Below are positions 30,081-56,113 of a stretch of 64,000 nt of DNA, one piece after another; within the stretch, counting starts at the first letter, position 1, and each line of letters opens with the position of its first letter. The stretch is from contig CALUGU010000002.1 in the NCBI GenBank assembly GCA_944320255.1, positions 10,706 to 74,705 on the forward strand. Direction: 5' to 3'. The notes under the pieces are model-generated. The model did not search any database, was not told where the DNA came from, and saw nothing but the letters and a program-made list of their open reading frames with translations. The position numbers and the translations under genes are program-made. The stretch comes from an uncultured Prevotella sp. GTDB lineage: Bacteria; Bacteroidota; Bacteroidia; Bacteroidales; Bacteroidaceae.

Positions 30081-31622
30081 TTATTGCAGTTTTTTGAGCA
30101 GGCTCGTTATGCTAACCTTGTCCTCGATGATGCCGCGCAGGTCGGCTATGTTGACACGTTCCTGCTCCATAGTGTCGCGGAAACGCAGCGTAACGGTGTT
30201 GTTCTCCAGCGTGTCGTGGTCTACGGTCACGCAATAGGGCGTGCCTATGGCGTCCTGGCGGCGGTAACGCTTGCCGATGGAGTCTTTCTCGTCGTACTGG
30301 CAGTTGAAGTGGAACTTCAGCTCGTTGATTATCTCGCGGGCCTTTTCGGGCAGTCCGTCTTTCTTCAGCAGGGGCATCACGCAGAGCTTCACGGGCGCCA
30401 AGGCTGCGGGCAGCTTCAGCACAACGCGCGTCTCGCCGTTCTCAAGCTGCTCCTCGCAGTAAGAGTGGCACATCACGGAGAGGAACATACGGTCTACGCC
30501 GATCGAGGTCTCGATGTCGTAAGGGGTGTAGCTCTCGCCCGTCTGCGGGTCGAAGTATTTAATCGACTTGCCCGAGAACTTCTCATGCTGCGACAGGTCG
30601 AAGTCGGTGCGGCTGTGTATGCCTTCCACCTCCTTGAAGCCGAACGGCATGTGGAACTCGATGTCCGTGGCGGCGTTGGCGTAGTGGGCCAGCTTCTCGT
30701 GGTCGTGGAAGCGATAGTTCTCCGCGCCGAAGCCGAGGGCCTGGTGCCACTTCATGCGCAGTTCCTTCCACTTGTTGAACCATTCCATCTCCGTGCCGGG
30801 CTTAACGAAGAACTGCATCTCCATCTGCTCGAACTCGCGCATGCGGAAGATGAACTGGCGGGCTACGATTTCGTTACGGAAGGCCTTGCCTATCTGGGCG
30901 ATGCCGAAGGGTATCTTCATGCGGCCCGTCTTCTGCACGTTCAGGTAGTTGACGAATATTCCCTGTGCCGTTTCGGGGCGCAGGTAGATCTTGCTTGTGG
31001 CGTCGGCGGCCGAACCCATCTCGGTAGAGAACATCAGGTTGAACTGGCGCACGTCTGTCCAGTTCTTCGTGCCGCTGATGGGGCACACTATGCCTTCGTC
31101 GATGATTATCTGCTTCAGCTCGGCCAGGTCGGGGCCTTGCATGGCCTTGGTGTAACGCTCGTGCAGGGCGTCGCGCTTCTGCTGGTGGGCTATCACGCGC
31201 GGGTTGGTCTCGCGGAACTTGGCCTCGTCGAAGGCCTCGCCGAACTTCTTGCGCGCCTTCTCCACCTCCTTGCTGATTTTCTCCTCGTACTTCGCCATCT
31301 GGTCTTCTATCAGCACGTCGGCGCGGTAACGCTTCTTCGAGTCGCGGTTGTCTATGAGCGGGTCGTTGAAGGCGTCAACGTGGCCGCTGGCCTTCCATAT
31401 CGTGGGGTGCATGAAGATGGCCGAGTCGATGCCCACGATGTTCTCGTGGAGCAGCACCATGCTCTTCCACCAGTATTCCTTTATGTTGTTTTTCAGCTCC
31501 ACGCCGTTCTGTCCGTAGTCGTAAACGGCTGCGAGGCCGTCGTAAATGTCGCTGCTGGGGAACACGAAGCCGTACTCCTTGCAGTGGGACACTATTTTCT
31601 TAAAAACATCTTCCTGTGCCAT
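30081..31622 (-). CDS. glyQS: Glycine--tRNA ligase (alpha2 type)
   Basis: LRPETAQGIF, GKAFRNEI, FRMREFEQMEMQFF, IETSIGVDR, IGKRYRRQDAIGTP. Confidence 0.96.
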   Translation of the reverse strand: MAQEDVFKKIVSHCKEYGFVFPSSDIYDGLAAVYDYGQNGVELKNNIKEYWWKSMVLLHENIVGIDSAIFMHPTIWKASGHVDAFNDPLIDNRDSKKRYRADVLIEDQMAKYEEKISKEVEKARKKFGEAFDEAKFRETNPRVIAHQQKRDALHERYTKAMQGPDLAELKQIIIDEGIVCPISGTKNWTDVRQFNLMFSTEMGSAADATSKIYLRPETAQGIFVNYLNVQKTGRMKIPFGIAQIGKAFRNEIVARQFIFRMREFEQMEMQFFVKPGTEMEWFNKWKELRMKWHQALGFGAENYRFHDHEKLAHYANAATDIEFHMPFGFKEVEGIHSRTDFDLSQHEKFSGKSIKYFDPQTGESYTPYDIETSIGVDRMFLSVMCHSYCEEQLENGETRVVLKLPAALAPVKLCVMPLLKKDGLPEKAREIINELKFHFNCQYDEKDSIGKRYRRQDAIGTPYCVTVDHDTLENNTVTLRFRDTMEQERVNIADLRGIIEDKVSITSLLKKLQ

Positions 31623-31817
31623 TGTTTATTTACCTTAAATATATTGTCTTATCAAAATACAAAGATGCCGAAATGCAGCATCTTTGCGCCTTTGGGTTGC
31701 AAAGATAGTGTAAATCAAGTGAAGCGCAAAATAAAAGTGAGGGAAACAAACTTTTATTTTACATTAAAACCGTGGCAGAACCAATACCTGAGCATAAACG
31801 CATGGCACTAAGGCTTT

Positions 31818-32063
31818 TCATATGGCGTTAATCTCGTCAAGAGACAAACCCGTTATCCGGGCTATTACATCAGGAGACAAACCCAGCCGTTTCGCATTAC
31901 GCGCATTATCCAACTTTTCTTCCGCACGGCCCTCTGCACGGCCCTCGTTTCTCGCATACGCCTCGGTGACGAGGTTGTCACGGTAGATCTTGATTGCCTC
32001 GTCATACTTCATACGGTCTTCCTTTGACAGGGCTGATATGTCTTTTATGTCTTCAATCCTCAT
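31818..32063 (-). CDS. Small protein copying the Rpn C-terminal domain (RpnS-like), 81 aa
   Basis: ATG at 32063, 1 nt after the Rpn TAG; MRIEDIKDISALSKEDRMKYDE...EGRAEGRAEEKLDNARNAKRLGLSPDVIARITGLSLDEINAI. Confidence 0.65.
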   Translation of the reverse strand: MRIEDIKDISALSKEDRMKYDEAIKIYRDNLVTEAYARNEGRAEGRAEEKLDNARNAKRLGLSPDVIARITGLSLDEINAI

Positions 32064-32064
32064 A

Positions 32065-32925
32065 CTACAAGGCGGTAATCTCGTCAAAAGACAAACCCGT
32101 TATCTGGGCTATTACATCAGGAGACAAACCCAGCCGTTTCGCATTACGCGCATTATCTAACTTTTCTTCCGCACGACCCTCTGCACGGCCCTCTGCACGG
32201 CCCTCTGCACGGCCCTCGTTTCTCGCATACGCCTCGGTGACGAGGTTGTCACGGTAGATCTTGATTGCCTCGTCATACTTCATACGGTCTTCCTTTGACA
32301 GGGACGCGATGTCTACAATCTCCTCCAACTTCATAAACACTGCTTTTTTAGCCTTGAAAGGCAACCTTTCCAACACTTCCATATTCTTCAACACATATAT
32401 CCAACGCTCAAAATCAGTCTCACACTCACTTTCGTCCTTGTTGAACGACGGCAACTGCAAGAACACATAGCGCATCTTGTCACTGAAAAGCTCATAGCTG
32501 TCACGGTCGGCCAGCACAACATCGGTGCGCAACTTGTCGGGCAGTCCGTCAAGGCGGAAGTTCATAAAGAACACGCCGTAAACGGCCTTCAAGTCAAACA
32601 TCCAAGACGCGCCGCGCTCACCCTGCCTCACCACCGCCTGCGACACGTAATAAAGCGCACGCTCGCGGAAATTCTGCTGCCGGCGGTTCTGCATTTCCAC
32701 GATAAACTGCTCGCCGTCCTCGTTCGTGCAATAAATATCGTAAATACAGCTCCTGTCCTCGATGGTGCCGCCAAGCACTTCCTTATCGAGGAAACGGATG
32801 TCTTTGATATGTTTCTCGCCCACAAGCAGACTGTTAAGGAAGTCTATCAACAAATCTTTGTTGATTTCTTGCCCGAAGATGCGCTTGAAGCCCACGTCCG
32901 TGAACGGATTGATAAACCTTGCCAT
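32065..32925 (-). CDS. Rpn-family PD-(D/E)xK nuclease (annotated as putative transposase)
   Basis: FINPFTDVGFKRIFG, IYDIYC...FIVEMQ, RALYY, YVFLQLPSF, FERWIYVLKNM; EGRA repeats and HTH-like tail. Confidence 0.9.
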   Translation of the reverse strand: MARFINPFTDVGFKRIFGQEINKDLLIDFLNSLLVGEKHIKDIRFLDKEVLGGTIEDRSCIYDIYCTNEDGEQFIVEMQNRRQQNFRERALYYVSQAVVRQGERGASWMFDLKAVYGVFFMNFRLDGLPDKLRTDVVLADRDSYELFSDKMRYVFLQLPSFNKDESECETDFERWIYVLKNMEVLERLPFKAKKAVFMKLEEIVDIASLSKEDRMKYDEAIKIYRDNLVTEAYARNEGRAEGRAEGRAEGRAEEKLDNARNAKRLGLSPDVIAQITGLSFDEITAL

Positions 32926-32989
32926 TGCGTAAAGTCTTTTCTATACCGCAAAAATAATGTTTTTTATCGTAAACGCAAAACAAAAACAC

Positions 32990-33385
32990 AGGAAAATACG
33001 GCAAAACGCACGCCAAAAGGCCGTCATCTGCAACCCAAGAAACGGTCTCTTGGAAAACAATCGGCAACGGCTTGACAGCCAAGGACATACAACCGCAAGA
33101 ACACGCAATACAAAAAGGCAACAAAAAAGCGGCCTTTGGCAACGCCAAAAGCCGCTTCCAGGAAACTGTTTTTGATTTTTTTGTCCGATGTTTTTAGATG
33201 TATTACCAAGACGTTTACGATTACATTTTTCGACGTTTAGCACGCTAAACTTTCTCAAAAAACAAATGGAAACGGCTGGTAAGACGCTAAAAACACGGCC
33301 AAAGGACATCGGAAACGCCCAAAAACGGCGTCCTGAAAAAACCAGAAACAGTTTCTCAAAATAATGACAACGGCAAAACGCCGCC
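32990..33385. repeat. Long degenerate AAAAG..CTTTT-family tract
   Basis: Phased A/T tracts with AAAAGGCCGTCATC, AAAAGCGGCCTTTG and AAAAGCCGCTT units. Confidence 0.55.
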
Positions 33386-33389
33386 TTGA

Positions 33390-33908
33390 TTACATCTTCA
33401 CCTTAATGTGTTTCATTACAGCGTAGCCGCCAAATACTTGCACGAGGATGCCCGGCCAGCCCAAGCGGACGTCTTGGAGGGCGTCGGCAAGCGAACCGGT
33501 CACGCCCCACTCGGCGAGCATTCCCGCCGCCTGATAAGCCACTACGGCCAAAGCGACAGCCCAAAGGGCCACGCCGCGCACGCGGGAAGCTATGCCGGCG
33601 GCGGCCAAGGCGAGCAATACCGACTTGATGAGGATGGTGGGCAGCGACGCCGCAGCAGGCATCCCGAAGAACAGGCTGTTGACAACAGGCGAGGCAATGG
33701 CCGTCAAGAGACCTGCCGTAAGGCCGAACTTATAGGCCGCTACAAGCGTGAAGAAATAGATGGGGAGCCACACTAAGCCGCCTTGCGGCACCAAGTGGCA
33801 CAACTGGGGCAGCACGATGTTGCCCGCAACGAACAGCGCGGCCATCATGTAGGCGCGGCTGTCGCGGCAGCTCAATGAGCAAACCGCCGATGCAGATGTC
33901 GTTTTCAT
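33390..33908 (-). CDS. ECF transporter S-component-like membrane protein
   Basis: GNIVLPQLCHL..GG..WLPIYFFTLVAAYKFG..AGLLTAIASPVVNSLFFGMP; about 5-6 TM helices. Confidence 0.7.
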   Translation of the reverse strand: MKTTSASAVCSLSCRDSRAYMMAALFVAGNIVLPQLCHLVPQGGLVWLPIYFFTLVAAYKFGLTAGLLTAIASPVVNSLFFGMPAAASLPTILIKSVLLALAAAGIASRVRGVALWAVALAVVAYQAAGMLAEWGVTGSLADALQDVRLGWPGILVQVFGGYAVMKHIKVKM

Positions 33909-33939
33909 TGTTGTTATTGATGTTAAAATATTGTCCTTT

Positions 33940-34075
33940 TTGAAGTTATAGAAGTTAAAGAAGTTATCGCTCCCTACTGTCGCTAAGAAGTTAAAGCCGT
34001 ATGCCTTGCATTCTGTTATTCACCACAGGGGTAATGGCTGTAACTTCTCCAACTTCTTTTAATTCTATAAATTCT
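33940..34075. repeat. GAAGTTA-lattice element
   Basis: GAAGTTATAGAAGTTAAAGAAGTTATCGCT...CGCTAAGAAGTTAAAG with an inverted TAACTTC tract; homologs at 36135..36275, 38070..38130 and 56040..56105. Confidence 0.75.
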
Positions 34076-34547
34076 TATCTTTCAGAAACTCTTTTATCAT
34101 CCGATACGCCTCGTCGGGCGAGTCCGTGCCGGCCGTGAGCTTCTCCACGGGGCAGACGTCGGTGCCGGCGCGGTTGATGATATTGGCCACTTCCTCGCCG
34201 AAAGACACCTCCATGCCGGCCCGGCGGAGCACTTCGAGCGCGCCGGAGCTTATCACTTGGGCGTAAACACGGCTCACGCCGCCCTTCACAAGGAGCAGGG
34301 CTGCGCCGCGACCGATTATTTTATCGGCAACGGATGCGCCGCGCAGGAAGGCGGGGTCGTCGGTGACGAGGGCGAAAAGGTCGGCCACGCCGCGACGCTC
34401 AAACTTGCGTATCTCGCCCGAAACAGAGCGGACAATGCCGCGGCAGGTGTCGCTAAAGCTGACACCCACACCAAACTCTTCCCCAACGGAGGGGCTTAGC
34501 ATGCCTTGCTTGTCTGTTTTCTCTTCCACAATTCTTTTCTTAAACAT
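34065..34547 (-). CDS. DUF1893-family protein
   Basis: RGVADL, VADKIIGRGAALLL, YAQVISSGA, IINRAGTDVCPVE; N-terminus extended by repeat-derived sequence. Confidence 0.75.
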   Translation of the reverse strand: MFKKRIVEEKTDKQGMLSPSVGEEFGVGVSFSDTCRGIVRSVSGEIRKFERRGVADLFALVTDDPAFLRGASVADKIIGRGAALLLVKGGVSRVYAQVISSGALEVLRRAGMEVSFGEEVANIINRAGTDVCPVEKLTAGTDSPDEAYRMIKEFLKDKNL

Positions 34548-34606
34548 TATCAGTCAGCCATCAACAGCATCCTCACTCCTCCCCTTGGGGAGGTCGGGAG
34601 GGGGCT

Positions 34607-36121
34607 TCATACGTCCTGCTTCAGCGTCTCCACGAACTCGTCAATGCGTTGCATCTCCTTCGGGATGTTTATTCCCTGCGGACAATGGTCTACACATTGG
34701 CCGCAACCGATGCAGTGGTCGGCCTGGCGGAGGCGGGGAACGCTGCGGTCGTAGCCTATCAGGAAGGCGCGGCGCGCACGCCGGTACTCACTCATAGCAG
34801 ACGAGTTACGAGTTGACGAGTTGACAAGAGGATTTGCATTGTTGGCTTGTCTGCTCGTCTGCTCGTCTGCTCGTCTACTTGTTTGCTTGTCTGCTTGTCC
34901 GTTTGTCTGCTCAACCACAGGCATATTGCCTTCCTTTATGCACCTGTTATAATGTAAAAGAATGCCCGGAATGTCTATTCCGTAAGGACAAGGCATGCAG
35001 TATTTGCAGTCGTTGCAGGGTATTGTCTTCAGGTTGTAGATGTCGCCGGCAATCTCCATGAGGAACTTCCGCTCCTCGCCCGTCAGCGGTTTCAGCGGCG
35101 AATAGGTGCAAAGGTTTTCACGAAGGTGCTCCATGTAAGTCATTCCAGACAGCACGGTGAGCACCCCGTCCGGCGTTCCGGCGAAGCGGAAAGCCCACGA
35201 CGCCACGCTCTGCTCAGGCTCACGCTGCTTCATCTTGGCCACGATGGCGTCGGGCACGTTGGCCAGGCGGCCGCCAAGCAACGGCTCCATGATTATGGCC
35301 GGTATGCCGCGCTTTTTCAGTTCGCCGTACAGATACACGGCGTCAGTGTTGCGCTTGTTAATCTCGTCGGCATAGTTCCAGTCGAGATAGTTAAGCTCTA
35401 TCTGCACAAAGTCCCAATGGTAACGCCCCTCGTCGTGCCAACGCAGCAGCATGTCGTATATCTTCACGTCGCCGTGATACGAGAAACCGAGGTTGCGTAT
35501 GCGTCCTTTGCGCTTCTGCTCAACGAGCCAGTCGAGTATGCCGTTGTCCATATAACGGCTGTTGAACATACCAAGCGCATCCTTGCCCTGCCCTATCGAG
35601 TGGAGCAGCAGATAGTCAACATAGTCAACCTGAAGCTCCTTGAGCGAGTTCTCGAACATCTTTATCGACTCCTCGCGAGGCCAAGTTTCTGGCGAGAAGT
35701 TCGACATCTTGGTTGCAATGAAGTACTCCGACCGCTTGTGGCGGCTCAAGGCGATGCCCGTGGCGCGCTCCGACTTGCCCTGGCAGTAGGCGGGCGACGT
35801 GTCAAAATAGTTGACTCCGTGCTCTATCGCATAGTCAACCTGGCGGTTCACCATCTCTTGGTCGATGTCCATCTCGCCCGTCCCTGTTGACGGGTCTTTG
35901 CCCTCGTTCTTGTCAGGCAGGCGCATCATGCCGTAACCCAAGAGCGACACGCGGTCCTTCGTGTTGGGGTTCACCCTGTAAGTCATCTTCCCTTTCTCCG
36001 GCTCCTGCTGCCTGGCGGTGGTCTGCTTGTCGTCCTTGCATGCCGCGAGCAACGCCGACGAAGCAACGGCCCCGCCTCCGAGAGCCTTCAGGAAATTGCG
36101 TCTTGATATGTCTTTTGCCAT
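34607..36121 (-). CDS. Tat-exported aldo/keto reductase with C-terminal 4Fe-4S domain (lipoprotein)
   Basis: SRRNFLK...LLAAC signal; SLLGYGMMRL, YFDTSPAY, IATKM, DYLLLH, IMEPLLGG; CNDCKYCMPC and CIGCGQCVDHCP. Confidence 0.9.
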   Translation of the reverse strand: MAKDISRRNFLKALGGGAVASSALLAACKDDKQTTARQQEPEKGKMTYRVNPNTKDRVSLLGYGMMRLPDKNEGKDPSTGTGEMDIDQEMVNRQVDYAIEHGVNYFDTSPAYCQGKSERATGIALSRHKRSEYFIATKMSNFSPETWPREESIKMFENSLKELQVDYVDYLLLHSIGQGKDALGMFNSRYMDNGILDWLVEQKRKGRIRNLGFSYHGDVKIYDMLLRWHDEGRYHWDFVQIELNYLDWNYADEINKRNTDAVYLYGELKKRGIPAIIMEPLLGGRLANVPDAIVAKMKQREPEQSVASWAFRFAGTPDGVLTVLSGMTYMEHLRENLCTYSPLKPLTGEERKFLMEIAGDIYNLKTIPCNDCKYCMPCPYGIDIPGILLHYNRCIKEGNMPVVEQTNGQADKQTSRRADEQTSRQANNANPLVNSSTRNSSAMSEYRRARRAFLIGYDRSVPRLRQADHCIGCGQCVDHCPQGINIPKEMQRIDEFVETLKQDV

Positions 36122-36537
36122 GTTTTTTATTTTTGAAATTATAGAAGTATTGCTGAGAAGTTAAAGAAGTCAGAGAAGTTTTTCACTTCGTTCAAGGGAA
36201 CTCTCGCTCGTTTCACTCGCTAAGAAGTTAAAGCCAAATGCCTTGTCGCCAAGATTTTGTTACTAACTTCTCGCCGTTCTTCACTCTCATCTTCTTGCTT
36301 TTTGTTTATATTCATAACTCATTGTGTGTCAACGCCTTATGTTTCACTATGCAAAAGGCGTCCTTTTAGCACGTGAAAGGTGTCCTTTTGCAGCACGAAA
36401 AGGCATCTTTCGCACGGCGTTTTGGCAATGTCTGCACAAAGAGATTTGTTTGTTGAAACGAAAGTTCAGATTTATTTGCAAATAAATTCTTCACTCTTCG
36501 TTCTTCGCTCTTCACCCCCCTTGGGGAGCCGGAGGGG

Positions 36538-38040
36538 CTAAACCTCCCTGTGCACCTCGTGGCCTTCAACGTAAATCGCACTGAACGGACGCGCCGGACA
36601 CAGGTTTTCGCACGCTCCGCAGCCTATGCAACGGGCTTCGTTGACGGCTGGTATCTTCAGCGAATGCTCGTCCTTAGGATTTATCGGCACCATTGTGATG
36701 GCTCCTGTAGGGCAATGGCGCGCGCAGTTGCCGCATTCCACTCCGTCAGTCAGGGGCACGCAGTTCTTCTTAATCCACACCGCATGGCCTATCTGCGTGG
36801 CCGACTTGTAGGCGCGGGTTATCGGCTTGATGGCTCCCGTGGGGCAAACGTCGCCGCACTTGGTGCATTCAGGGCGGCAATAGCCACGCTCGTAGGACAT
36901 CGTGGGCTGCATAAACGTAGACAAACTGGTTGACGGACGCAGCACGTCGTTGGGACAGTTTGACACGCAAAGCTGGCAAGCCGTGCAGTGCTGGGCGAAA
37001 TGCCGGGCCGACAAAGAGCCGGGAGGGGTTATCGGAGTAAGCCTTTCAGGAGCTATCTTTTCCTCGATGGCCGCCAGTCCGCCGTCCACCTTTTTCTTCT
37101 CTTGCGCCAAAGCGGCACCCGTCGTGGCAATAGCCATGCCAAGAAGGAACGAGCGGCGGCCGACCCCCTCAACTCCCCCAGTGGGGGAGCTTTGGCCATC
37201 TGGCTTTAAGCCCTCCCTACGGGGGAGGGTTTGGGAGAGGCTTATCGCGCCCTTGTTGCACTTTTCGATGCAATCGCCGCACACGACACAACGGCTGTAA
37301 TCTATCCGATGGTTCTTAAAGTCGATTGCCGACGCCTTGCAGTTCTTCGTGCACAGTCCGCAGTTTACGCATTTTGAGTCGTCGATGCGTACCTTGAACC
37401 ATGAGAAACGGGCCAGAAAACTGAGTATAGTTCCTACCGGACAGACCGTGTTGCAGTACGTCCTGCCGCCCCGCCAGGCAAGTACGGCGATGACAACGAG
37501 CGTCACAGAGGCTACAACGAGCGTCGGCAGGCTCTTCATCCACACATCGACGCTGTAAAAAGCATAGCTGTTGAAATGCTCGGCGATGGCCGCCAGCACG
37601 TTGTTCCCGGCCTCGTAGACGGGCTTCATCAGGCTGCCGGCGATGCGTCCGTATGAGCTGTACGGCGCAAGAAGCGACACAACGGCGTTAACTCCGGCCA
37701 AAGCTGAAGCTATGAAGACCACCAGCACTCCGTAGCGCAACCACCGCTTTTCCTTTGAATAGGTAAACCTGTTCTTCTTACGGATGCCGTGCAGGTGCGA
37801 TATGACGTCCTGCATCACGCCGAGAGGACATATTACGGAACAGTAAATGCGCCCGAACACGAGCGTAAGCACCACCAACAGTGCCACAACACCTATGTGC
37901 AGGGCGAGCAAGGCCGGCCAAAACTGAATGCTGGCGAGCCACCCGAAATACTTGTGCAGCGTGCCCGTAACGTCCAAGAAGAGCAACGTTATCAGCACAA
38001 ACACCACAAGGGCGAGGGTCGTTCTGATTTTTCTTAGCAT
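36538..38040 (-). CDS. Membrane polyferredoxin (NapH-like + NapG/MauM-like 4Fe-4S domains)
   Basis: Start refined to MLRKIR; GRIYCSVICP and GRTYCNTVCP, several CxxCxxCxxxCP motifs, internal GRRSFLLG followed by a hydrophobic helix. Confidence 0.88.
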   Translation of the reverse strand: MLRKIRTTLALVVFVLITLLFLDVTGTLHKYFGWLASIQFWPALLALHIGVVALLVVLTLVFGRIYCSVICPLGVMQDVISHLHGIRKKNRFTYSKEKRWLRYGVLVVFIASALAGVNAVVSLLAPYSSYGRIAGSLMKPVYEAGNNVLAAIAEHFNSYAFYSVDVWMKSLPTLVVASVTLVVIAVLAWRGGRTYCNTVCPVGTILSFLARFSWFKVRIDDSKCVNCGLCTKNCKASAIDFKNHRIDYSRCVVCGDCIEKCNKGAISLSQTLPRREGLKPDGQSSPTGGVEGVGRRSFLLGMAIATTGAALAQEKKKVDGGLAAIEEKIAPERLTPITPPGSLSARHFAQHCTACQLCVSNCPNDVLRPSTSLSTFMQPTMSYERGYCRPECTKCGDVCPTGAIKPITRAYKSATQIGHAVWIKKNCVPLTDGVECGNCARHCPTGAITMVPINPKDEHSLKIPAVNEARCIGCGACENLCPARPFSAIYVEGHEVHREV

Positions 38041-38179
38041 ATATTCATAATGTTTTTTCAAATATTCTTCAGAAGTTAAAGAAGTTATAGGAGTTATCAC
38101 TCACTTCGTTCGCTTAGAAGTTAAAGGACAAATGCCTTGCTTACAAGCGTCCTTTTTACCGTTTTACCTTTTTACTTTT

Positions 38180-38935
38180 TTACCTTTTTCCACGGGTTTG
38201 CCTTACTATCACCACGCTTGCCTCATAAAGCAGCCAGATCGGCAACGACACGAGCAGCAGCGTGAAAGCGTCCGACGTGGGCGTGACGACCGCCGCAACG
38301 GCCACTATCGCCACCACGGCGTGCTTGCGGTAACGGCTCATCCACTCGGCCTTGAGCAACCCGAAACGGGCTAAAAGCCAACAGACGACGGGTATCTCGA
38401 ACACAACGCCGAACACGATGCTCATCATCACCAGCGTGTCAACATAAGACGAGAGCGTCAGCAGGTTGTCAACGTCGGCGCTCACGGAGTAAGTGCCGAG
38501 GAAACGCACCGTCAGCGGAAAAATGACAAAGTAATTGACAAGCAGCCCAACGATGAACATCGCATAAGCCGCGACCGTCAGCCTGACCGAGCACCGCCGT
38601 TCGTTCTCGTACAGCGCGGGCGAGATGAAGCGGAAAAGCACATATAATATATAAGGAGAGGCCATCAGCACGCCGGCTGCGAAAGCCATCTTCATGTGCA
38701 CCATGAACTGTTCGGTAAGCCCAGTGTTGACAAGCCGGATGCTGAAATGCTCCGCACCAAGCAGCCTGTAAGTCACGAAGTCGTCGCGGCTTGGCGCCAG
38801 CACCACGCTGAACAGCCAGTCCTTGAGCACGAAAGCCACTACGCCGGCGGCCACGGCGGCCACCAACATACGTATCAGGCTGCCACGGAGCACGTCAAGA
38901 TGCTCCCAGAACGTCAGCCCGCCGTCGTCACTCAT
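38180..38935 (-). CDS. tatC: Twin-arginine translocase TatC
   Basis: [37 protein letters not shown]. Confidence 0.95.
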
Positions 38936-39104
38936 CTTTCTTCTTCGGTTCTTCCTGTTCGTCGTCCAGCTTTCCGTTCATGCCGTCCTTGAAACTCTTT
39001 ACGCCCTTGCCCAGGCCCTTCATCAGCTCCGGTATCTTCTTGCCGCCGAACAGCAACAGGATGATCAGGGCGAGGACGAGTATCTCTTGCATTCCTATTC
39101 CCAT
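38928..39104 (-). CDS. tatA: Twin-arginine translocase TatA/E (58 aa)
   Basis: Not in the ORF track in this frame; [39 protein letters not shown]. Confidence 0.92.
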
Positions 39105-39120
39105 ATTTTCTTATTTTAGG

Positions 39121-39225
39121 AACAAGCTGACAAGTCACGAGCTGACAAGGAGATATGCCTTGTCGTCTTTCCAACATCTGAACAAACTTGCTTGTCTGCT
39201 CGTCACTTGTAAACTTGTTTACTTG
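39121..39225. repeat. ACAAG heptamer-lattice element
   Basis: ACAAGCTGACAAGTCACGAGCTGACAAG with an inverted CTTGCTTGTCTGCTCGTCACTTGTAAACTTG tract; homologs at 55960..56035, 58060..58190 and 34795..34915. Confidence 0.75.
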
Positions 39226-41094
39226 TTAAATATTAATATTCACGCCACCCATGAATGTAGCCTTGGGCATAGGGTAGCCGTACATTATCTCATATTTCTG
39301 CGCCAGCAGGTTCTCGCCTTTAGCCCAGACGCCGAGCCAAGGCAAGGCACGGTAAGCCGCGGTGACGTTCAGCAGGATGAAGTTCTCCTTGACTTCCGCC
39401 GGGTCAACCTGCGTGTACAGACCGCCGACATATTGCAGTCCACCCGCCAGAGTCCACCGTCCGCGGCGGTATCCCGCGCCAAGGTAAGCCTTGTGTTCAG
39501 GTGCGGCGAGCACCTTGTTGTGCATCTTCAGGTAACTGTAGTTGGCGTTCAGGCTGAAGTAACGGCTGGCGCGCCACGCGGCCTCGGCCTCCACGCCGCA
39601 GTTCTCTATCGCCCCCGTGTTCACGTTCATCGGACGGCCGTCAACCATCGCGGTCTGGATGATGTTGTCGCCGTTGATGTAAAACAGGTTCAGTCCGTAA
39701 GAGAAAGCCCCGCCCATAAGCCTTTGCTTCCACGAAAGCTCATAGTTCACCGCCTCCTCCGGGCGCAAAGCGTCGTTGGCCGGACGCCAGAGGTACATCT
39801 CGCGGATGGTAGGGTTGCGGAAACCTTTGCTCACCATGGCCTTCAGCTCGCCGTCTTCCACTACGCGGAACACCACTCCGCCCTGCGGCACCCACTCCGT
39901 ACCGGCCTGCGAATGATGATCCAAGCGCACCCCGGCGTCCACCGTGAGCCAGCGGAACAAGTCTTGCCTGAAATCCACGTATCCGGCAATCTCGTTCTCG
40001 TGGTGGTGGCCTATGCCGCCCGTCACCTCGCGCGAGCCGATGGACTCGTTCCACGCCTTGCCGTAGATATGCTGGTAGTCAACGCCCACAGTGACGCGGT
40101 TGCCCGTGAAGAACGTCGCGCTCTGGTAGACGGAGAAGCCCGTCAGCGCGTCTTTCGACATGAAATAGTCCGTCTGGGGCTGTTCGCCAGGGCCGTAACC
40201 GTCGTTTATCTTATGCCGGCCGAAGTTGTGGTACACGCTCACCGCACCCGAAGTGCGCCCGTAATGGTTCTCCACCACGGCCGTGGCCACGCCCCTCGTA
40301 ATCCATTGGCGCGCCCCAAGGAGCGGCTCGTGCATGCTGCCTGGGTAAGACGAGTTGAAATGCGTCACGTTGACATCGGCGTAAGCCGTCCAGTGGGGAG
40401 AAAAGTCATAGCCTAACTTAACGTAGCCGCCATACTGCTCGAAGCCGAAGTCAGGGCGGTTGTTGCCGCTGCGGCCATACTGGCCCGACACAACGCTGTA
40501 GAAGCCGCCGCTCCTTATCCTGTTGGTGAACTCGCCCTGGAACGTGCCATACGAACCTGCGCCGAGGTTGACGTCGGTCTTAACGCCGTCGCCCTCCATC
40601 CTGCGCGTCACGATATTCACCACTCCGCCCATGGCGTTAGAGCCGTAAAGCATCGACGCCGGGCCGCGCAACACCTCAACGCGCTCGGCCATCATCGTCT
40701 GGTAAGAGTCGCTGATGGAGTGTCCGAAGATGCCTTGGTACTGCGGATGTCCGTCTACGAGCACCATCATGCGCCCGCCTCCGCTGCCCAGTCCGCGCAG
40801 GCTGATGCCTCCCGCGGCGCCGTCGCTCACGGCGTAGCCCATCATAGAGCGCGACGTGACGAACAGTCCCGGCACCACCTCGGCCAGCGTCGGCAGCACG
40901 TTCACGCGCTGGCTCTCTGCCAGCCGGCGCCTGCCCACCACGGATATTGTCATCGGCAGGTGTCTCACGTCGGTGGTAGAGCGCGTGCCCGTCACCACCA
41001 CGTCGCCCAGCCTGTGCGCCGTAGTGTCGCGCTGGGCGCGGACTTCGCCTGTGGCACACACCAATATCGCTGCTGCAAAAATAAAAGTTTTCAT
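39226..41094 (-). CDS. TonB-dependent receptor (plug + barrel, non-SusC type)
   Basis: DVVVTGTRS, plug ERVEVLRGPASMLYGSNAMGGVVNIVT, C-terminal GENLLAQKY...GYPMPKATFMGGVNINI. Confidence 0.92.
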   Translation of the reverse strand: MKTFIFAAAILVCATGEVRAQRDTTAHRLGDVVVTGTRSTTDVRHLPMTISVVGRRRLAESQRVNVLPTLAEVVPGLFVTSRSMMGYAVSDGAAGGISLRGLGSGGGRMMVLVDGHPQYQGIFGHSISDSYQTMMAERVEVLRGPASMLYGSNAMGGVVNIVTRRMEGDGVKTDVNLGAGSYGTFQGEFTNRIRSGGFYSVVSGQYGRSGNNRPDFGFEQYGGYVKLGYDFSPHWTAYADVNVTHFNSSYPGSMHEPLLGARQWITRGVATAVVENHYGRTSGAVSVYHNFGRHKINDGYGPGEQPQTDYFMSKDALTGFSVYQSATFFTGNRVTVGVDYQHIYGKAWNESIGSREVTGGIGHHHENEIAGYVDFRQDLFRWLTVDAGVRLDHHSQAGTEWVPQGGVVFRVVEDGELKAMVSKGFRNPTIREMYLWRPANDALRPEEAVNYELSWKQRLMGGAFSYGLNLFYINGDNIIQTAMVDGRPMNVNTGAIENCGVEAEAAWRASRYFSLNANYSYLKMHNKVLAAPEHKAYLGAGYRRGRWTLAGGLQYVGGLYTQVDPAEVKENFILLNVTAAYRALPWLGVWAKGENLLAQKYEIMYGYPMPKATFMGGVNINI

Positions 41095-41239
41095 CAAAAA
41101 CCGAAAATTTTATATCTTAAAATTCAAGAGTATTTTACAGAGTGAAGAACGAAAAGCAAAGAATTAAAAATCCCGACGCCTGCGACCATAACACCCATTA
41201 TTCATTATTCATTTTTAATTTTTAATTTTTAATTTAAAA

Positions 41240-41463
41240 GCGTGGCCGCCCGCGCTCACCGCGCACCGCCACGCATGAAGAAGTTATTGATTGTCTATAT
41301 CTATGAGGACGCAGGCCTCACTCCCAAGGCCCGCCGTCACTGCATAGCCAACGGCATAATCACCCTTGCATCCGCCGAAAGCGGACAGGTTGTCCGGCGC
41401 AGGTATTACAAACGTCTTCATATCCTCCGTTTTTCCAACACATACTTTTACGTTGCAAAAATA
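41240..41463 (-). promoter_or_regulatory. Structured 5' leader of the TBDR operon (promoter, uORF, terminator-like hairpin)
   Basis: TATTTTTG near 41456-41463; uORF 41421..41284; hairpin GCGTGGC/GCCACGC at 41240-41274 followed by TTTT. Confidence 0.5.
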
Positions 41464-41679
41464 CAACTATATTTTCATTAAAACCGTATATATTTCACCT
41501 ATTTAACTACCAATTTTACATTTTTACGGACAAGGCGTCCGCATTCCCAATTTCCACACGTCCAACCCTGTCTCCTCTAATTTGCAATCCTCGTACTCGA
41601 ACCTGCGGATTGCAAACCAACAGGAACAGAAAATCCGCAGGAACAGGCATCCTACAAAAGCAAAAAAGCCGTAACTGAA

Positions 41680-41711
41680 AAGCCCCAAGACCATATATGG
41701 CCTTAGGGCTT
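41680..41711 (-). terminator. Intrinsic terminator after the Omp28-like gene
   Basis: AAGCCCCAAGACCA/TGGCCTTAGGGCTT imperfect hairpin with an adjacent A-run. Confidence 0.6.
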
Positions 41712-41740
41712 CTCTTTTATAATCAATCTAAAACTTGGCT

Positions 41741-42625
41741 TCATTCAGCTTCGCCGCTGGCGTCATCACCGGCCTGGGTGTCTATCACCGGCACGCGAAC
41801 AGCCTGCTGCACGCCGTCGTTGTTGTAAACGAATGCTACCACGTGCATATCTTCAGGTTTCCACCTTACGTATTCGCTGCCCTCGTCCTCGTGCTCCTTG
41901 ATGTACTTGGCTTCAAGTTCGTCAAGGCTGATGGTGTATTCGAGGGTCTTCTCATCGTTCCAACCGAGCGTGAAGTCCTCACCGTCACGTCCGTTGACAG
42001 CGGCGCGGAACACGTGGTTGTGGACGTAGTTGTAATCATACGCACCGTTGGGCGGCGTTACTTGGTAGCTTACGATGTTGTCTTCAGTCAGCCAAAGCTG
42101 GATTTTTCCGCTTACGTCAAGCTGTCCCTTGGCTATGATGCTTACCGTAGCCGTGCGGGTGGTTTCATCATAACTTGAACTTGCCTCCAATGTCAACGGA
42201 GCCGAAACTGCCAATGCGTTGCTCACCAACGTAGGCCACGTAGAATAATTCTCCGTGTAACTACCCCTGTCAACAACCGCTGTAGGTTGTGCACTTATAG
42301 GCCATTGAGAATAATAATATTCTGCATCTGAAGTCCACAGGGGAGTATGACCAAACATTCCGACCGACTGGGTGCCGCTGTGCATCCCGACGACAATCAC
42401 AGTTTCGGGCGTATATTGCTCCGTCAACTGTTCCAAAACAGCTGAACCGTTAGGACACTGCACGCAAAACTGGCCGGTGAAATCCTCAACAAGGATATTC
42501 CTCTCCACGGGAACTGGCTCCACGTATATATAACGGTCGTCCTCGTCAATGTTGTCGCAAGCCGCAAAAGACACTGCGGACAAGGCGCAAAGAGCTATCT
42601 TAGCATAAATATTCGTCAATTTCAT
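41741..42625 (-). CDS. Omp28-related outer-membrane lipoprotein
   Basis: Lipobox FAAC; VEDFTGQFCVQCP thioredoxin-like motif; LTEDNIVSYQ, YVHNHVFRAAVNG. Confidence 0.85.
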   Translation of the reverse strand: MKLTNIYAKIALCALSAVSFAACDNIDEDDRYIYVEPVPVERNILVEDFTGQFCVQCPNGSAVLEQLTEQYTPETVIVVGMHSGTQSVGMFGHTPLWTSDAEYYYSQWPISAQPTAVVDRGSYTENYSTWPTLVSNALAVSAPLTLEASSSYDETTRTATVSIIAKGQLDVSGKIQLWLTEDNIVSYQVTPPNGAYDYNYVHNHVFRAAVNGRDGEDFTLGWNDEKTLEYTISLDELEAKYIKEHEDEGSEYVRWKPEDMHVVAFVYNNDGVQQAVRVPVIDTQAGDDASGEAE

Positions 42626-42633
42626 TTCTCGAA

Positions 42634-44331
42634 TCAGAAGTTATAGTTATACGAAAGTGTAACACCCTTGCTCGACGGTGTGTAGCGGCACACGCCTCCA
42701 GCACAGTTGTAACCGGCGCGTGTACGACCGTAACCGAGCTGAATGCGGTGGGCGCCCGTGGTGAATGTCACAAGACCCTGATAATAGTGGCGGTTGGTGA
42801 CGCCGCTGTTATACATGTCGGCCACGGTGAACATCCAGTTTGGCAGGAACGAAAGTTCCAACAGGCCGTACCACCAGTTGCCCATGTCCTCGCTGGTAGA
42901 AAGGAACTGCACTTCGCCGCGGAGCGTCAACTTGCGGTTGAACTTGTATTTAGCGTCGGCGATGAAGATGTCCGAATGTATCATCTTGTCTTCGGTCTCG
43001 GCAATACGGTTGATGGCGTTGTTGAAGAACTGGTTCATATACATGAAGTGCAAGTCGAACGAGCGCGAGAACTTCTTGCCGATCTGGATGTTCAAGTCCT
43101 GGTAATACTTGCCGTCGTCGCCCCACTTCCAGAATGCCGAGCCGTAACCGTCGGTGCCCATGCCGCCGCCGTCTTTGGTGCTGCGGTCGATACCACGCAC
43201 ATAAGAGAAGTTGACGCGCACCTTAGTACCGTATTTACCTCCGAGGAAGGTGTGACGCTTGAAGTTGTAACCCAGTTGCGCCTGGTAAGCCCACTCACCG
43301 TCAGGGTTTGTGGCATAAGGATACATGGCTGCCAAGGCGTAGGTCTGATCCATGGTGAACGCCGGCAGGTGGTTGATCATTGACGGGTTGCCCGTGTCAG
43401 AGCGGCGGCTGCGGAACGACATATTGTCGCTGCGCTTTGCCTGGAGCAAGAGGCTCATGCCGCGCTGCGAATAAGAGGCGGAGAGCATGGCCACGGTTCC
43501 CTTGCGGTAAATGTAGCCGTTGTCGAACGACGGGTCTTGCGTTTTCCATGCATACTCGGCCAACAGTCCGAAACCGCCCTTCTGCAAGTTGGCGCGAACG
43601 TCGAAGGCATTGACCGAAGTAGGAATGTTGAGCTTGTTGTTGGGCTTGTCTGTAACCCAGATGTCTTCGTCGCTTTCATACTTGTTCACCCACGAAGCAC
43701 CGAGGGTAAGATAAGTGCCGCTGTTGGAGAGGCCCTTGAACCACTGGTCAAGGCTAAGCTCAAGGTCGGCACCGCTCACCCAAGCGTCATTATGCGACCA
43801 GTAACGGCGCTGCTTGCCGCTCAACACCTTGACGGCCACGCCCTTTACGGGGCGGATGGTGAAACGTCCGCCAAGCAACGAGTTGTCGATGCCGAGCGTG
43901 CGCTCCTCGTAAGTGCGGAGAATGAAGCCCGAACCGAACTGTTCATAGAAATTACCGAGGGTGAGATCCCAGTTCTTGAAGTGTGTTTTTACATAGAAAT
44001 AAGGTACGCCCCAGCCAGCATAGTCTTTGGTGAGACCTGGCGGGCGGAAGCCTGGAAGAGGGTGTTTCAAGAACTCGAAGCGCGCTCCGGCGTCTACGTG
44101 CTCGCTCATGATGTTCACATCGGCGAACGTGTTGGTGACGGCCCACTCGTCAATACGTTCTGACTCCTGCATCGTCTCAGAGTCAAACTGCGGAATGAGG
44201 ATGTCGCTCTGGACGCTACCTGACACGGTAACTTTCTTGCTTTCCGCATTTTCCTGCCCTTCTTGCGCAACGGACGAAACAGCCGGGGCAAGCGCGGCGA
44301 GTAGGCATATCAGTTTGCTTTTTGTATTCAT
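42634..44331 (-). CDS. Outer-membrane beta-barrel protein (DUF6029-like)
   Basis: Signal peptide; GNFYEQFGSGFILRTYEERTLGIDNSL; YNCAGGVCRY; terminal aromatic YNF. Confidence 0.75.
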   Translation of the reverse strand: MNTKSKLICLLAALAPAVSSVAQEGQENAESKKVTVSGSVQSDILIPQFDSETMQESERIDEWAVTNTFADVNIMSEHVDAGARFEFLKHPLPGFRPPGLTKDYAGWGVPYFYVKTHFKNWDLTLGNFYEQFGSGFILRTYEERTLGIDNSLLGGRFTIRPVKGVAVKVLSGKQRRYWSHNDAWVSGADLELSLDQWFKGLSNSGTYLTLGASWVNKYESDEDIWVTDKPNNKLNIPTSVNAFDVRANLQKGGFGLLAEYAWKTQDPSFDNGYIYRKGTVAMLSASYSQRGMSLLLQAKRSDNMSFRSRRSDTGNPSMINHLPAFTMDQTYALAAMYPYATNPDGEWAYQAQLGYNFKRHTFLGGKYGTKVRVNFSYVRGIDRSTKDGGGMGTDGYGSAFWKWGDDGKYYQDLNIQIGKKFSRSFDLHFMYMNQFFNNAINRIAETEDKMIHSDIFIADAKYKFNRKLTLRGEVQFLSTSEDMGNWWYGLLELSFLPNWMFTVADMYNSGVTNRHYYQGLVTFTTGAHRIQLGYGRTRAGYNCAGGVCRYTPSSKGVTLSYNYNF

Positions 44332-44420
44332 TGTTTGTTATTTAATGGGGGGGGGTGCTGGGAGTACTGGGAGAGCTGAGAAAGCCGGGAGTACTGGGAG
44401 GTCTGGGAGACCGCACCACC

Positions 44421-44909
44421 TTATTTATTAATTAGCTCGCGTACTTTCTCGATGAGTTCCTGCTCGTCGCCCTCCTTATAGCCGTTGTGCTTGTAAACGA
44501 TGTTGCCCTGGCCGTCAACGATGATGGTGTAAGGTATCATCTGGATGCCGAGGGCGCGCTTGAAGTCGCTGTTAGGGTCGAGAAGCACGTAGTAAGGCCA
44601 TTCGTTGCTGTCAACGAGGGGGCGCACCTTGTTGATGTTCTGCGCCTGGTCGATCGACACGGCGATGACTTTCACGCCGGTCTCCTCCTGCCACTCCTCG
44701 TAGACTTCGTTGATGGCGTTAAGCTCACGGTTGCACGGATGGCACCATGTGGCGAAGAAGTCGATGATGAACGGCTTGCCGTTGTTCGACAGCGTGTCGG
44801 TGCGGACTGTCTTGCCGTCGATGTCCTTCAATGTTATCGACGGGAGCTGGGCGTTGGCTGTGCAAACGCAGCCAAGCAACACTACGATTGATAATAAAAA
44901 TTGTTTCAT
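44421..44909 (-). CDS. TlpA-family thiol-disulfide oxidoreductase
   Basis: IDFFATWCHPCNREL, VIAVSID, LDPNSDFKRALG. Confidence 0.9.
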   Translation of the reverse strand: MKQFLLSIVVLLGCVCTANAQLPSITLKDIDGKTVRTDTLSNNGKPFIIDFFATWCHPCNRELNAINEVYEEWQEETGVKVIAVSIDQAQNINKVRPLVDSNEWPYYVLLDPNSDFKRALGIQMIPYTIIVDGQGNIVYKHNGYKEGDEQELIEKVRELINK

Positions 44910-45362
44910 CTTTATCGGTTTTTGTTAATTCTTAATTAATAATAAGCAATCTCCAATCGACAAAATTAAGCATATTTTCAATAAGTACAAAATTTTAGCA
45001 CAAAAAAAACATTTATTAAAAACGTTTTTGCAAACGATAAAATTAGGAGCGGGAAAACGCACAAACTGACATTTTAAGCACGACAAAACTTTCAGTTTTA
45101 ACACAGTTCTATTGTAAGGCGTACACTTTATTATGAGAGCTTGTTCCCGTCCCCGTAACGGGCTGATATAAAGACAGTTGCAAAAGACGGTCTTCCACGT
45201 TGCAATAAACGACTTTTCACGCGACGAAAAGCAGCAAATGAGAATGAGAAAGATGGCATACGGGGTTCATCTACAAGCCTTCTGGATGTTTTATAATAAT
45301 CTCACCTCCTTCGTCTCCTCGGATTTGCGATCCGCAGGGAACGGCGCAAGAACTGCTGCAAC

Positions 45363-45398
45363 AAAAAAAACGGGCGGGCACATCGAGTGTGTCCGCCC
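45363..45398 (-). terminator. Intrinsic terminator of 45437..46684
   Basis: GGGCGGGCACA/TGTGTCCGCCC hairpin with A8 on the left. Confidence 0.75.
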
Positions 45399-45436
45399 GC
45401 AGCGTTAATAAAAACGCTTATCCCGCGCCGTTTTTT

Positions 45437-46684: not shown

Positions 46685-46971
46685 GTGATTGTAATTTAAA
46701 TGTTTAACTTTTCGGCGACAAAGATAGTGCTTTTTGTGATACGACAAGAGTATTTGACGTGATATTTTGTTTTTTTAATATTGAATGGTCGCAAACGTTT
46801 GCGTAAATGACGACGAATGGGGATGCGGGAGTAAAAAACGGCGGATTTTTTGCACGGCTCGATTTTTTAATGTACCTTTGCAAGGTTACAGCTTACACCT
46901 TATAATATATATGCAGCATAGCCTATGGGCCGCGAGGACGCGGCGCGGGGTGTGGCATTTACCGAAGATAC

Positions 46972-55959: not shown

Positions 55960-56113
55960 AACAAGCAGACGAGCAGACAAGCAAGCAAACAAGGGACAAG
56001 CAGACAAGCAAACAAGCAAACAAGGGATGAGCCGGCAAAGCATTTGGCTTTAACTTCTTAGCGAACGGAGTGAGCGATTACTTCTTTAACTTCTGAAGAA
56101 AACTTCTAAAAAA

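Follow-up and report, generated by a model that had tools for sequence, protein, structure and literature searches.

A predicted Tat-exported iron-sulfur aldo-keto reductase in a conserved Bacteroidales gene cluster, with a possible salvage route for a nickel-pincer-type cofactor

Gene content and conservation of the cluster

The DNA analysed here is a window of 64,000 nucleotides (nt) from an uncultured Prevotella sp., and the system in question is a cluster of seven genes, all on its minus strand, at positions 33390-41097, where an earlier sequence-only reading of the window had placed it; the ATG of the receptor gene lies at 41094, the end coordinate of that reading. In the direction of transcription, the cluster encodes a TonB-dependent receptor (TBDR) of 623 amino acids (aa), BtuB-sized and with plug and barrel domains (39226-41097), TatA of the twin-arginine translocation (Tat) system (38928-39104; PF02416, E 1e-15; TIGR01411, 62 bits with a cut-off of 54), TatC (38180-38935; PF00902, E 7e-63; TIGR00945 above its cut-off), a polyferredoxin of the NapH-NapG fusion type (36538-38100), an aldo-keto reductase (AKR) that bears a Tat lipoprotein signal and, at its C-terminus, a 2x[4Fe-4S] domain (34607-36121), a DUF1893/TM1506 protein (34065-34547; PF08973, E 3e-42), and a solitary S component of the energy-coupling factor (ECF) type, 172 aa long and recognised by its AlphaFold2 model and Foldseek fold matches (33390-33908). 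The tatA and tatC genes overlap by 8 nt, and a longer open reading frame of 81 aa, which lies in another frame at tatA, was rejected as TatA. Seven co-oriented genes with these identities had been claimed from the letters alone, and domain, motif and fold evidence bears this out.

Conservation was followed in 80 loci centred on DUF1893 from many Bacteroidales genera, which span Prevotella, Bacteroides, Phocaeicola, Alistipes, Muribaculaceae, Rikenellaceae, Odoribacter and others (labels of the form L### denote fetched loci). The polyferredoxin with an adjacent Tat-AKR was present in 53 of these loci, the S component in 54, all four core genes in 40, and TatC and the receptor in 19 each, while all seven families were found co-directional in five, with a different gene order in three of the five. 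The closest loci belong to uncultured Prevotella assemblies, Candidatus Prevotella intestinigallinarum among them. Among the relatives, the genes for polyferredoxin and AKR always lie side by side; around them, the order of tatA-tatC, receptor, DUF1893 and S component varies. The neighbourhood check that came with the sequence-only reading thus shows the set to be co-conserved and co-oriented, in shuffled order, across Bacteroidales. Two secreted proteins recur as additional members, a Flavodoxin_4 lipoprotein and a DUF362 protein, the former directly 5' of the polyferredoxin in about 10 related loci. On another contig of the same genome (C122:1757-2490), a secreted Flavodoxin_4 lipoprotein lies beside a TatA-like fragment that is broken by a stop codon. 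A regulator gene, which we take by eye to be Fur-family, lies directly 5' of the polyferredoxin-AKR pair in one genome of the same genus (L022:12615-13070); as a clue to context it was set aside, as it does not recur in the 80 loci.

At the level of the genus, 10 of the 13 genomes with the AKR also have the S component and 12 have TatC; of the 12 genomes without the AKR, none has the S component and four have TatC. In an order-level sample of 301 genomes, we counted Tat-AKR in 41, the S component in 29, LarC in 46, a Tat-signal DUF362 protein (Tat-DUF362) in 103 and LarA in 23; the association of the S component with Tat-AKR had an odds ratio of 27 (p 2e-13, phylogeny being ignored in this and the other co-occurrence statistics), and 27 of the 29 genomes with the S component also encode a polyferredoxin-partnered exported enzyme. 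These patterns bear on the possibility that the neighbourhood is mostly coincidental, that is, that an AKR-polyferredoxin pair happens to lie beside the translocase genes and that receptor, DUF1893 and S component form a separate vitamin-uptake unit. Sub-units do occur alone, since the polyferredoxin-AKR pair is found without the other genes in L016, L022, L024 and L025 and receptor and S component also form units of their own, and the gaps of 416 and 156 nt within the cluster could hold internal promoters. However, the S component hardly ever occurs outside genomes with a polyferredoxin-partnered enzyme, also where the genes are unlinked, the set is kept while its order shuffles, and the S component re-associates with a different exported enzyme and polyferredoxin (see below), which makes coincidence a most improbable explanation.

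The intergenic gaps from receptor to S component measure 121, -8, 79, 416, 59 and 156 nt. The search for promoters used the Bacteroides-type -7 box (TAnnTTTG), a sigma-70 scan having been dropped as not meaningful for Bacteroidetes. On the minus strand of 33300-41800, the sole non-coding -7 box (TATTTTTG) lies at 41463, 365 nt 5' of the receptor; one further match, at 41083, lies inside the receptor gene, and none was found in the internal gaps, the 416-nt spacer included. Because the only non-coding box precedes the receptor and the internal gaps hold none, these motifs lend weak support to a single transcript.

The predicted exported reductase and its polyferredoxin

By textbook, AKRs are cytoplasmic NAD(P)H enzymes. 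The protein encoded here matches PF00248 (E 7e-34), Fer4 families and TAT_signal, and its N-terminus carries the motif SRRNFLK at residues 6-12, followed by an uncharged h-region and a lipobox, LLAAC, with its cysteine at residue 28. In 40 orthologs, RRxFLK and the lipobox Cys are near-invariant, from which we predict export by Tat as a lipoprotein; a cytoplasmic location, which the sequence-only reading had named as a finding that would count against it, is thus disfavoured at this locus by the signal and its conservation. Across the same orthologs, D107, H216 and eight Cys are invariant, while Y112, K138, H174 and C28 are near-invariant. The lipobox Cys is followed by K-D-D (residues 28-32, at 36070-36030), which presumably resembles the surface-export signal of Bacteroidetes lipoproteins. 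This acidic patch is not kept in orthologs, so surface exposure of the AKR seems unlikely. An in-frame insertion of 8-nt tandem repeats (eight copies at 8-nt spacing; minus strand, 34831-34920) separates the two Cys clusters of the gene. It is missing in most orthologs (alignment columns 461-500) and encodes a low-complexity loop, with a model pLDDT below 50 at residues 405-439. The model is otherwise a barrel with TM scores of 0.7-0.8 to AKR structures. Literature on COG1453, and on Tat, AKRs and Bacteroides, was searched, and nothing relevant was found there.

The cluster carries the only TatC match in the 2.75-Mb, 92%-complete assembly. In a crude motif scan of the whole genome, the AKR was the sole protein with a canonical N-terminal Tat signal, and convincing Tat signals were limited to the AKR and the polyferredoxin. 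In the latter, four strong transmembrane segments (residues 28-46, 64-82, 125-143 and 190-208) are accompanied by CxxxCP motifs at residues 87 and 216 and by six four-Cys motifs, two of them in the first half (residues 244 and 271) and four in the second (372, 408, 447 and 491). An internal twin arginine, RR315-316, precedes a fifth, weakly hydrophobic segment (313-331; mean hydropathy 1.03 versus 2.4-2.9 in the other four), after which follows EKKK. NCBIfam models of NapH, NapG and NapF match the appropriate halves of the protein below threshold, and the scores (78 bits for NapH, cut-off 234; 76 bits for NapG, cut-off 269) place it outside the curated Nap families, so that the assignment was made from these sub-threshold matches together with the helix and Cys motifs. 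A NapH-NapG fusion polyferredoxin of the delta proteobacterium MLMS-1 requires both Sec and Tat, and its unfused NapH/NapG homologs together make up a quinol dehydrogenase (Tooke et al., eLife 2017, PMC5449189). By analogy, we predict that the polyferredoxin of the cluster uses Sec as well as Tat for its insertion, and we presume that it acts as a quinol dehydrogenase. The Tat-type twin arginine in this protein, which the sequence-only reading had noted, hence finds a place in a fusion of this Sec-plus-Tat type.

By sequence, the best solved relative of the AKR is NphT (9YEB; E 1.4e-13, residues 84-360), and this match is nearly full length, whereas canonical AKRs align over the N-terminal third only. 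NphT is an AKR that depends on the nickel-pincer mononucleotide, a soluble hydride shuttle whose gene adjoins lar genes (Semersky et al., Nat Chem 2026, PMC13524815). Its nickel ligand His144 aligns with H216 of the AKR (in G-F-S-Y-H-G), which is invariant in the 40 orthologs, cytoplasmic variants included, and the Thr/Ser that precedes this His is conserved between the two proteins and likewise invariant in the 40 orthologs. The Lys tether of NphT was found to be kept only in a divergent cytoplasmic AKR from Alistipes (L081), whose gene adjoins genes for receptor, DUF362, DUF1893 and S component.

An alternative is that the AKR carries a tightly bound NAD(P)(H), loaded before Tat export, with DUF1893 as an NAD or ADP-ribose helper and the uptake genes either unrelated or of a niacin type. 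There is precedent in the glucose-fructose oxidoreductase of Zymomonas, which is loaded with NAD(P)(H) in the cytoplasm before it is exported by Tat. Such a cofactor would suit the conserved catalytic tetrad and nicotinamide-site Gln of the AKR, its nearest structural neighbours, which are NAD(P)H AKRs, and the lack of lar genes in this genome; TM1506, moreover, was found ADP-ribosylated and with a nucleotide-like ligand (PMC3239186). The nicotinamide site itself argues in the other direction, as the Ser-Asn-Phe of canonical AKRs is replaced by Ser-Tyr-His, as in NphT. In addition, Fe-S clusters reduce nicotinamide poorly without a flavin-like mediator, and the proximity of the partner genes to lar genes and nikR (see below) would have no explanation. 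With these points in mind, we regard a bound NAD(P) as very unlikely.

Uptake genes, DUF1893 and their links to lar genes

The receptor matches the plug family PF07715 (E 8e-20) and the barrel family PF00593 (E 2e-38). All specific NCBIfam receptor models (BtuB, siderophore, heme) fall far below their cut-offs, the best being a siderophore subfamily (131 bits, cut-off 224), with BtuB at 121 bits (cut-off 600), so by its profile matches the protein is a generic TonB-dependent receptor only. Among solved receptors, BtuB alone aligns over the full length (E about 1e-11). The S component was modelled at a pLDDT of 94 with the six-helix fold of its class, and its top 11 Foldseek matches in the PDB are all ECF S components (TM scores 0.52-0.72). 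They include RibU, ThiT and FolT as well as the S subunits from two complete ECF transporters, whereas neither BtuM nor CbrT was matched. It scores below the threshold of the Pfam family ECF_trnsprt, PF12822 (15.5 bits versus 30.7; E 0.018), and a profile of its own family reaches RibU (3p5n) at E 0.006. No match to CbiQ/EcfT was found genome-wide in the 92%-complete assembly, and the S component, if it is a transporter, is called solitary because the genome lacks EcfT; the absence of ECF ATPase and T genes that had been remarked on for the locus thus extends, for CbiQ/EcfT, to the assembly. Orthologs of the receptor with 57-62% identity form stand-alone two-gene units with the S component in four loci (L129-L132), and the two proteins constitute one uptake route, as the sequence-only reading had proposed. 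Our findings also agree with its proposal of a cofactor or chelate as the cargo.

Vitamin B12 was considered as a cargo in view of the weak full-length similarity to BtuB and of L016 (7729-13806), a locus of the same genus in which genes for a cbiA-like and a cobQ-like amidotransferase lie on either side of the polyferredoxin-AKR pair and in the same direction. It was rejected, since this arrangement is a one-off and no corrinoid genes recur in the 80 loci. Riboswitches were rejected as a clue to the cargo as well. An Rfam search of 31000-47000 at E<=1 gave no relevant family and no riboswitch, in the receptor leader or elsewhere, and in eight related loci it gave one cobalamin riboswitch (L014:6248-6442, 101 bits), which points away from the cluster. 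That riboswitch has no gene downstream on its strand, and its target seems to have been displaced by an AT-rich gene of 769 aa on the other strand. The putative promoter and its leader of about 365 nt 5' of the receptor (minus strand, 41098-41463) may have a regulatory role, and the leader is a candidate ligand-sensing element that could reveal the cargo.

DUF1893 scores 143.9 bits against PF08973 (threshold 27), shows neither signal peptide nor transmembrane segment, and carries the conserved motifs VADK(V/I)(V/I)GK and CPxE. The family has a deaminase-like fold with a pocket for a nucleotide-type ligand, and its operons with AKR and 5-TM genes have been known since 2011 from Firmicutes and Bacteroidetes, as have proteins in which DUF1893 is fused to a TonB-type receptor (Iyer et al., NAR 2011, PMC3239186). 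A short DUF1893 subtype (~115 aa, without CPxE) is found at L033:10049-10402, L034:9889-10236 and L036:206-553, where it is unrelated to the AKR cluster. In L033 and L036 the gene beside it is, judged by eye, presumably a Sir2-type deacylase, which is of note given the ADP-ribosylation reported for TM1506.

The link to nickel comes largely from genomes in which the same parts are arranged differently. Eight genomes have the S component without the AKR, and in five of these a sister module is present, composed of the S component (49-57% identity), a small Gpt-like phosphoribosyltransferase (PF00156), a Tat-signal DUF362 protein (PF04015) and a polyferredoxin paralog (41-45% identity), to which tatA-tatC or the receptor is added in some cases (L133, L135, L136, L137, L138, and also L139). 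DUF362 belongs to the same Pfam clan as the N-terminal domain of LarA (PMC11770544); a DUF362 profile run against PDB sequences did not reach LarA. In nine of 20 LarC loci (L142, L144, L146-L149, L151, L154 and L161), Tat-DUF362 and polyferredoxin are divergently adjacent to larC-larE-larB, all three identified by NCBIfam equivalogs above their cut-offs, and the S component is in none of the nine. In the 301 genomes, 32 of the 46 with LarC also have Tat-DUF362 (odds ratio 5.9, p 1e-7), and LarA is missing from 29 of the 46. Because the pair adjoins larC-larE-larB so often and LarA is often absent, DUF362 may be an exported and so far undescribed enzyme that uses the nickel-pincer cofactor. AKR and DUF362, the two alternative exported enzymes, are members of the two families in which this cofactor is known to be held. 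In the same sample, no genome with LarC has the S component (p 0.012) or Tat-AKR (p 9e-4). None of the 25 genomes of the genus encodes LarC, and the present genome lacks LarB, LarC and LarE.

A Tannerellaceae locus (L112:3028-10344) brings the uptake genes and the lar genes together. There, larE, larC, larB, a DsbD_2-type permease with the motif HSHHSH, the receptor, a lipoprotein of 202 aa, DUF1893 and the S component are co-directional, with nikR on the other strand. The permease recurs at seven other larC loci and nikR at six. Relatives of the receptor with 35-42% identity are found in larC/nikR loci, and in L150 and L152 they stand with permease, nikR and larC.

Such loci also raise the possibility that nickel itself, as the ion or a small chelate, is imported, and that the AKR is a nickel enzyme, which might acquire the metal with DUF1893 as a metallochaperone or by a lar-independent route. 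The gene content of L112 with its nickel-type permease, the receptor relatives of L150 and L152 and the invariant nickel-ligand His of the AKR would all suit this. However, genomes with the S component never have LarC in the 301-genome sample, and the lack of LarB, LarC and LarE here implies that imported nickel could not be converted into the known pincer cofactor. The known nickel S components NikM and CbiM are, moreover, larger and work with EcfA/T, whereas EcfT is absent here, and the phosphoribosyltransferase found as a partner in the DUF362 variant suggests that the cargo is organic. We therefore consider nickel as such a quite unlikely cargo.

The pathway put forward in the sequence-only reading is, in a fuller form, a further alternative. 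In that form, the receptor imports an oxidised cofactor, a chelate or a heteroaromatic base, the exported AKR reduces or remodels it in the periplasm with quinol electrons that the polyferredoxin supplies, the S component imports the product, and DUF1893 or, in the DUF362 variant, the phosphoribosyltransferase traps it in the cytoplasm. It draws support from the gene set and its co-conservation, from receptor and S component forming one route, from the Gpt-like phosphoribosyltransferase beside the S component in the DUF362 variant, which fits salvage of a base, and from the base- or nucleotide-binding fold of DUF1893 (PMC3239186). What does not hold up is the processing of the cargo by AKR and polyferredoxin on its way in. 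In a cytoplasmic variant of the cluster, DUF1893 and an equally close ortholog of the S component accompany a signal-less Fe-S AKR, so that reduction would follow import. Tat-DUF362 and polyferredoxin lie beside larC-larE-larB in genomes that make the cofactor and have no transporter, where an enzyme preparing an import would be pointless. About half of the genomes with AKR and polyferredoxin are without the transporter, one genome (G013) has three AKR paralogs and a single S component, and ten Fe-S clusters would be a heavy cost for a trace nutrient; the likeness to NphT points the same way. In sum, we regard this order of events as unlikely.

The reading that we favour, with a probability of roughly 0.45, is that the cluster serves the salvage of a nickel-pincer-type cofactor for the exported, probably quinol-wired AKR, which would use the import and not process it. 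Four independent lines link the system to this cofactor, namely the match to NphT, the DUF362/larCEB loci, L112 and the receptor relatives. Beside the exported enzyme and its polyferredoxin, the S component and DUF1893 or phosphoribosyltransferase, often with the receptor, fill the place that is held elsewhere by larCEB, which suggests a supply by uptake instead of by synthesis. The small TonB-dependent receptor would carry the cargo over the outer membrane and the solitary S component over the inner membrane; because the genus lacks larB, larC and larE, the cargo would most likely be the finished cofactor or a nickel-containing fragment, scavenged from producing neighbours. The cytoplasmic DUF1893 might bind or handle the cargo prior to loading and export of the AKR. 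The AKR, as a member of an NphT-like branch, would most likely hold a nickel-pincer-type nucleotide in its nicotinamide site instead of free NAD(P)H and, with its two [4Fe-4S] clusters and lipid anchor, would be exported folded by the adjacent TatA/TatC. At the membrane, one half of the polyferredoxin would take electrons from menaquinol, or give them to it, and the Tat-translocated four-cluster half would pass electrons to the clusters of the AKR, where the nickel-pincer cofactor could link the transfer of single electrons by Fe-S clusters to hydride chemistry outside the cytoplasm. The order of import, loading and optional export would explain exported and cytoplasmic AKR variants alike, and the nickel-pincer cofactor would explain an Fe-S-fed AKR that does not rely on nicotinamide.

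Several observations weigh against this salvage reading. The tethering Lys200 of NphT is replaced in the exported AKRs by a near-invariant Glu (E279, in I-M-E-P-L); 40% of lar-linked AKRs carry the His without the Lys (PMC13524815). The canonical Asp-Tyr-Lys-His tetrad and the nicotinamide-type Gln are retained, which leaves room for a tightly bound NAD(P). Foldseek against the PDB returned only canonical NAD(P)H AKRs for the AKR model, with a library that ends on 2026-04-08 and may lack 9YEB, given that the NphT paper is dated June 2026. L112 holds both lar genes and S component, so nickel or a precursor fits as a cargo there as well as the finished cofactor. Neither S component nor LarC is present in 21 of 41 Tat-AKR genomes and 58 of 103 Tat-DUF362 genomes, which implies either another route of supply or enzymes that do not strictly depend on the cofactor, and the co-occurrence statistics take no account of phylogeny. 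A strict complementarity of "LarC or S component" was weakened by these enzyme-positive genomes with neither and by L112 with both.

A wider hypothesis extends the salvage reading to gut Bacteroidales that are unable to make the nickel-pincer cofactor. These would scavenge it, or its nickel-bearing core, from microbes around them by means of receptor and S component; DUF1893 would load it in the cytoplasm or the phosphoribosyltransferase would rebuild the nucleotide, the holo-enzyme would be exported by Tat, and electrons from quinol would be fed through Fe-S clusters into hydride chemistry. In this full form, we consider the hypothesis doubtful.

Surrounding features, implications and comparison with known systems

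The remaining features of the region concern its non-coding DNA and neighbours. Just 3' of the S-component gene, at 33366-33385 on the minus strand, lies a terminator-like hairpin, GGCGGCGTTTTGCCGTT followed by a T-rich tail, as judged from its match to the consensus. The 416-nt spacer between polyferredoxin and AKR (minus strand, 36122-36537) contains genome-specific repeats and a hairpin directly 3' of the polyferredoxin stop codon; in relatives this gap measures about 30-100 nt. An intergenic repeat, GGCTTTAACTTCTTAGCGA...ACTTCTTTAACTTCT, is found at 33930-34008, 36130-36245, 38067-38140 and 56046-56115, just 5' of the start codons of the S component, the AKR, the polyferredoxin and a gene near 56116, and could be a promoter or translation-related element. 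Tandem lattices of 8 nt, typical of the intergenic regions of this genome, are also seen at 39188-39204, 38151-38190 and 55960-56020. On the 5' side of the cluster and on the same strand, genes for an Omp28 lipoprotein, DUF6029 and a TlpA/ResA-like thioredoxin (41741-44909) are followed by a palindromic repeat at 41672-41719 and probably form a separate operon.

Before 2026, when AKRs were added to its users, the nickel-pincer cofactor was believed to be required by a few racemases. The linkages described here suggest a larger set of respiratory-type users, a new LarA-clan user in Tat-DUF362 and a salvage route that operates without the biosynthetic genes. If the wider hypothesis is true, this would be the first salvage of the nickel-pincer nucleotide and the first AKR or LarA-clan enzyme linked to a respiratory chain, and the cofactor would be a cross-fed "vitamin" of the gut. 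An exported, lipid-anchored Fe-S AKR on a NapGH-type polyferredoxin would represent a new means of carrying out carbonyl or hydride chemistry outside the cytoplasm. The module is common, with Tat-AKR in 41 and the sister DUF362 module in 103 of the 301 genomes. With the linkages described here, the use and sharing of the cofactor in the gut become testable in cultivable Bacteroides, Phocaeicola and Alistipes, and DUF1893 and DUF362, both long without a function, gain roles that can be tested. Cultivable carriers include Phocaeicola sartorii DSM 21941 (L102), Phocaeicola abscessus CCUG 55929 (L088) and Alistipes sp. i18-0019-D1 (L110), and DUF1893 is present in Bacteroides thetaiotaomicron.

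The cluster shares parts with several known systems. Solitary S components that act as vitamin importers together with a TonB-dependent receptor are reportedly found in Gram-negatives, for example BtuM with BtuB. With these importers, as with RibU, ThiT and FolT, the protein described here shares the S-component fold, and it is paired with a BtuB-sized receptor in a genome without EcfT; it differs from them in falling below the PF12822 threshold, and no riboswitch was found in the region searched.

The polyferredoxin resembles that of MLMS-1 in its four Sec-type segments with CxxxCP motifs, in two cytoplasmic and four periplasmic cluster motifs, and in an RR motif with a weak fifth segment and positive charges after it. 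NapGH, however, serves a nitrate reductase system, whereas the conserved partner here is the AKR (or DUF362). MsrPQ, a periplasmic reductase with a quinol-oxidising membrane partner, follows the same logic, with a Tat-exported catalytic protein and a membrane protein that taps the respiratory chain (PMC5449189), but the folds are unrelated and the cofactors differ (molybdopterin and heme b versus AKR and Fe-S).

The operons of Iyer et al. share DUF1893, an aldo/keto reductase and a 5-TM protein with the present cluster. In that study, the C-terminus of the AKR was taken for a zinc ribbon and the 5-TM protein for a channel, the proposed role was one in redox sensing or in regulatory ADP-ribosylation, and Tat export, the polyferredoxin, the S-component fold and the lar link did not form part of the description (PMC3239186). 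The LarA/B/C/E system is related by its gene neighbourhoods, as larC-larE-larB adjoin the sister module and, in L112, receptor, DUF1893 and S component, although none of these lar genes is present in this genome. Finally, the AKR has in common with NphT the TIM barrel of AKRs and the nickel-ligand His. It is set apart by its Tat signal, lipobox, fused 2x[4Fe-4S] domain and membrane polyferredoxin partner, by a Glu in place of the tethering Lys, and by a genome without larBCE.

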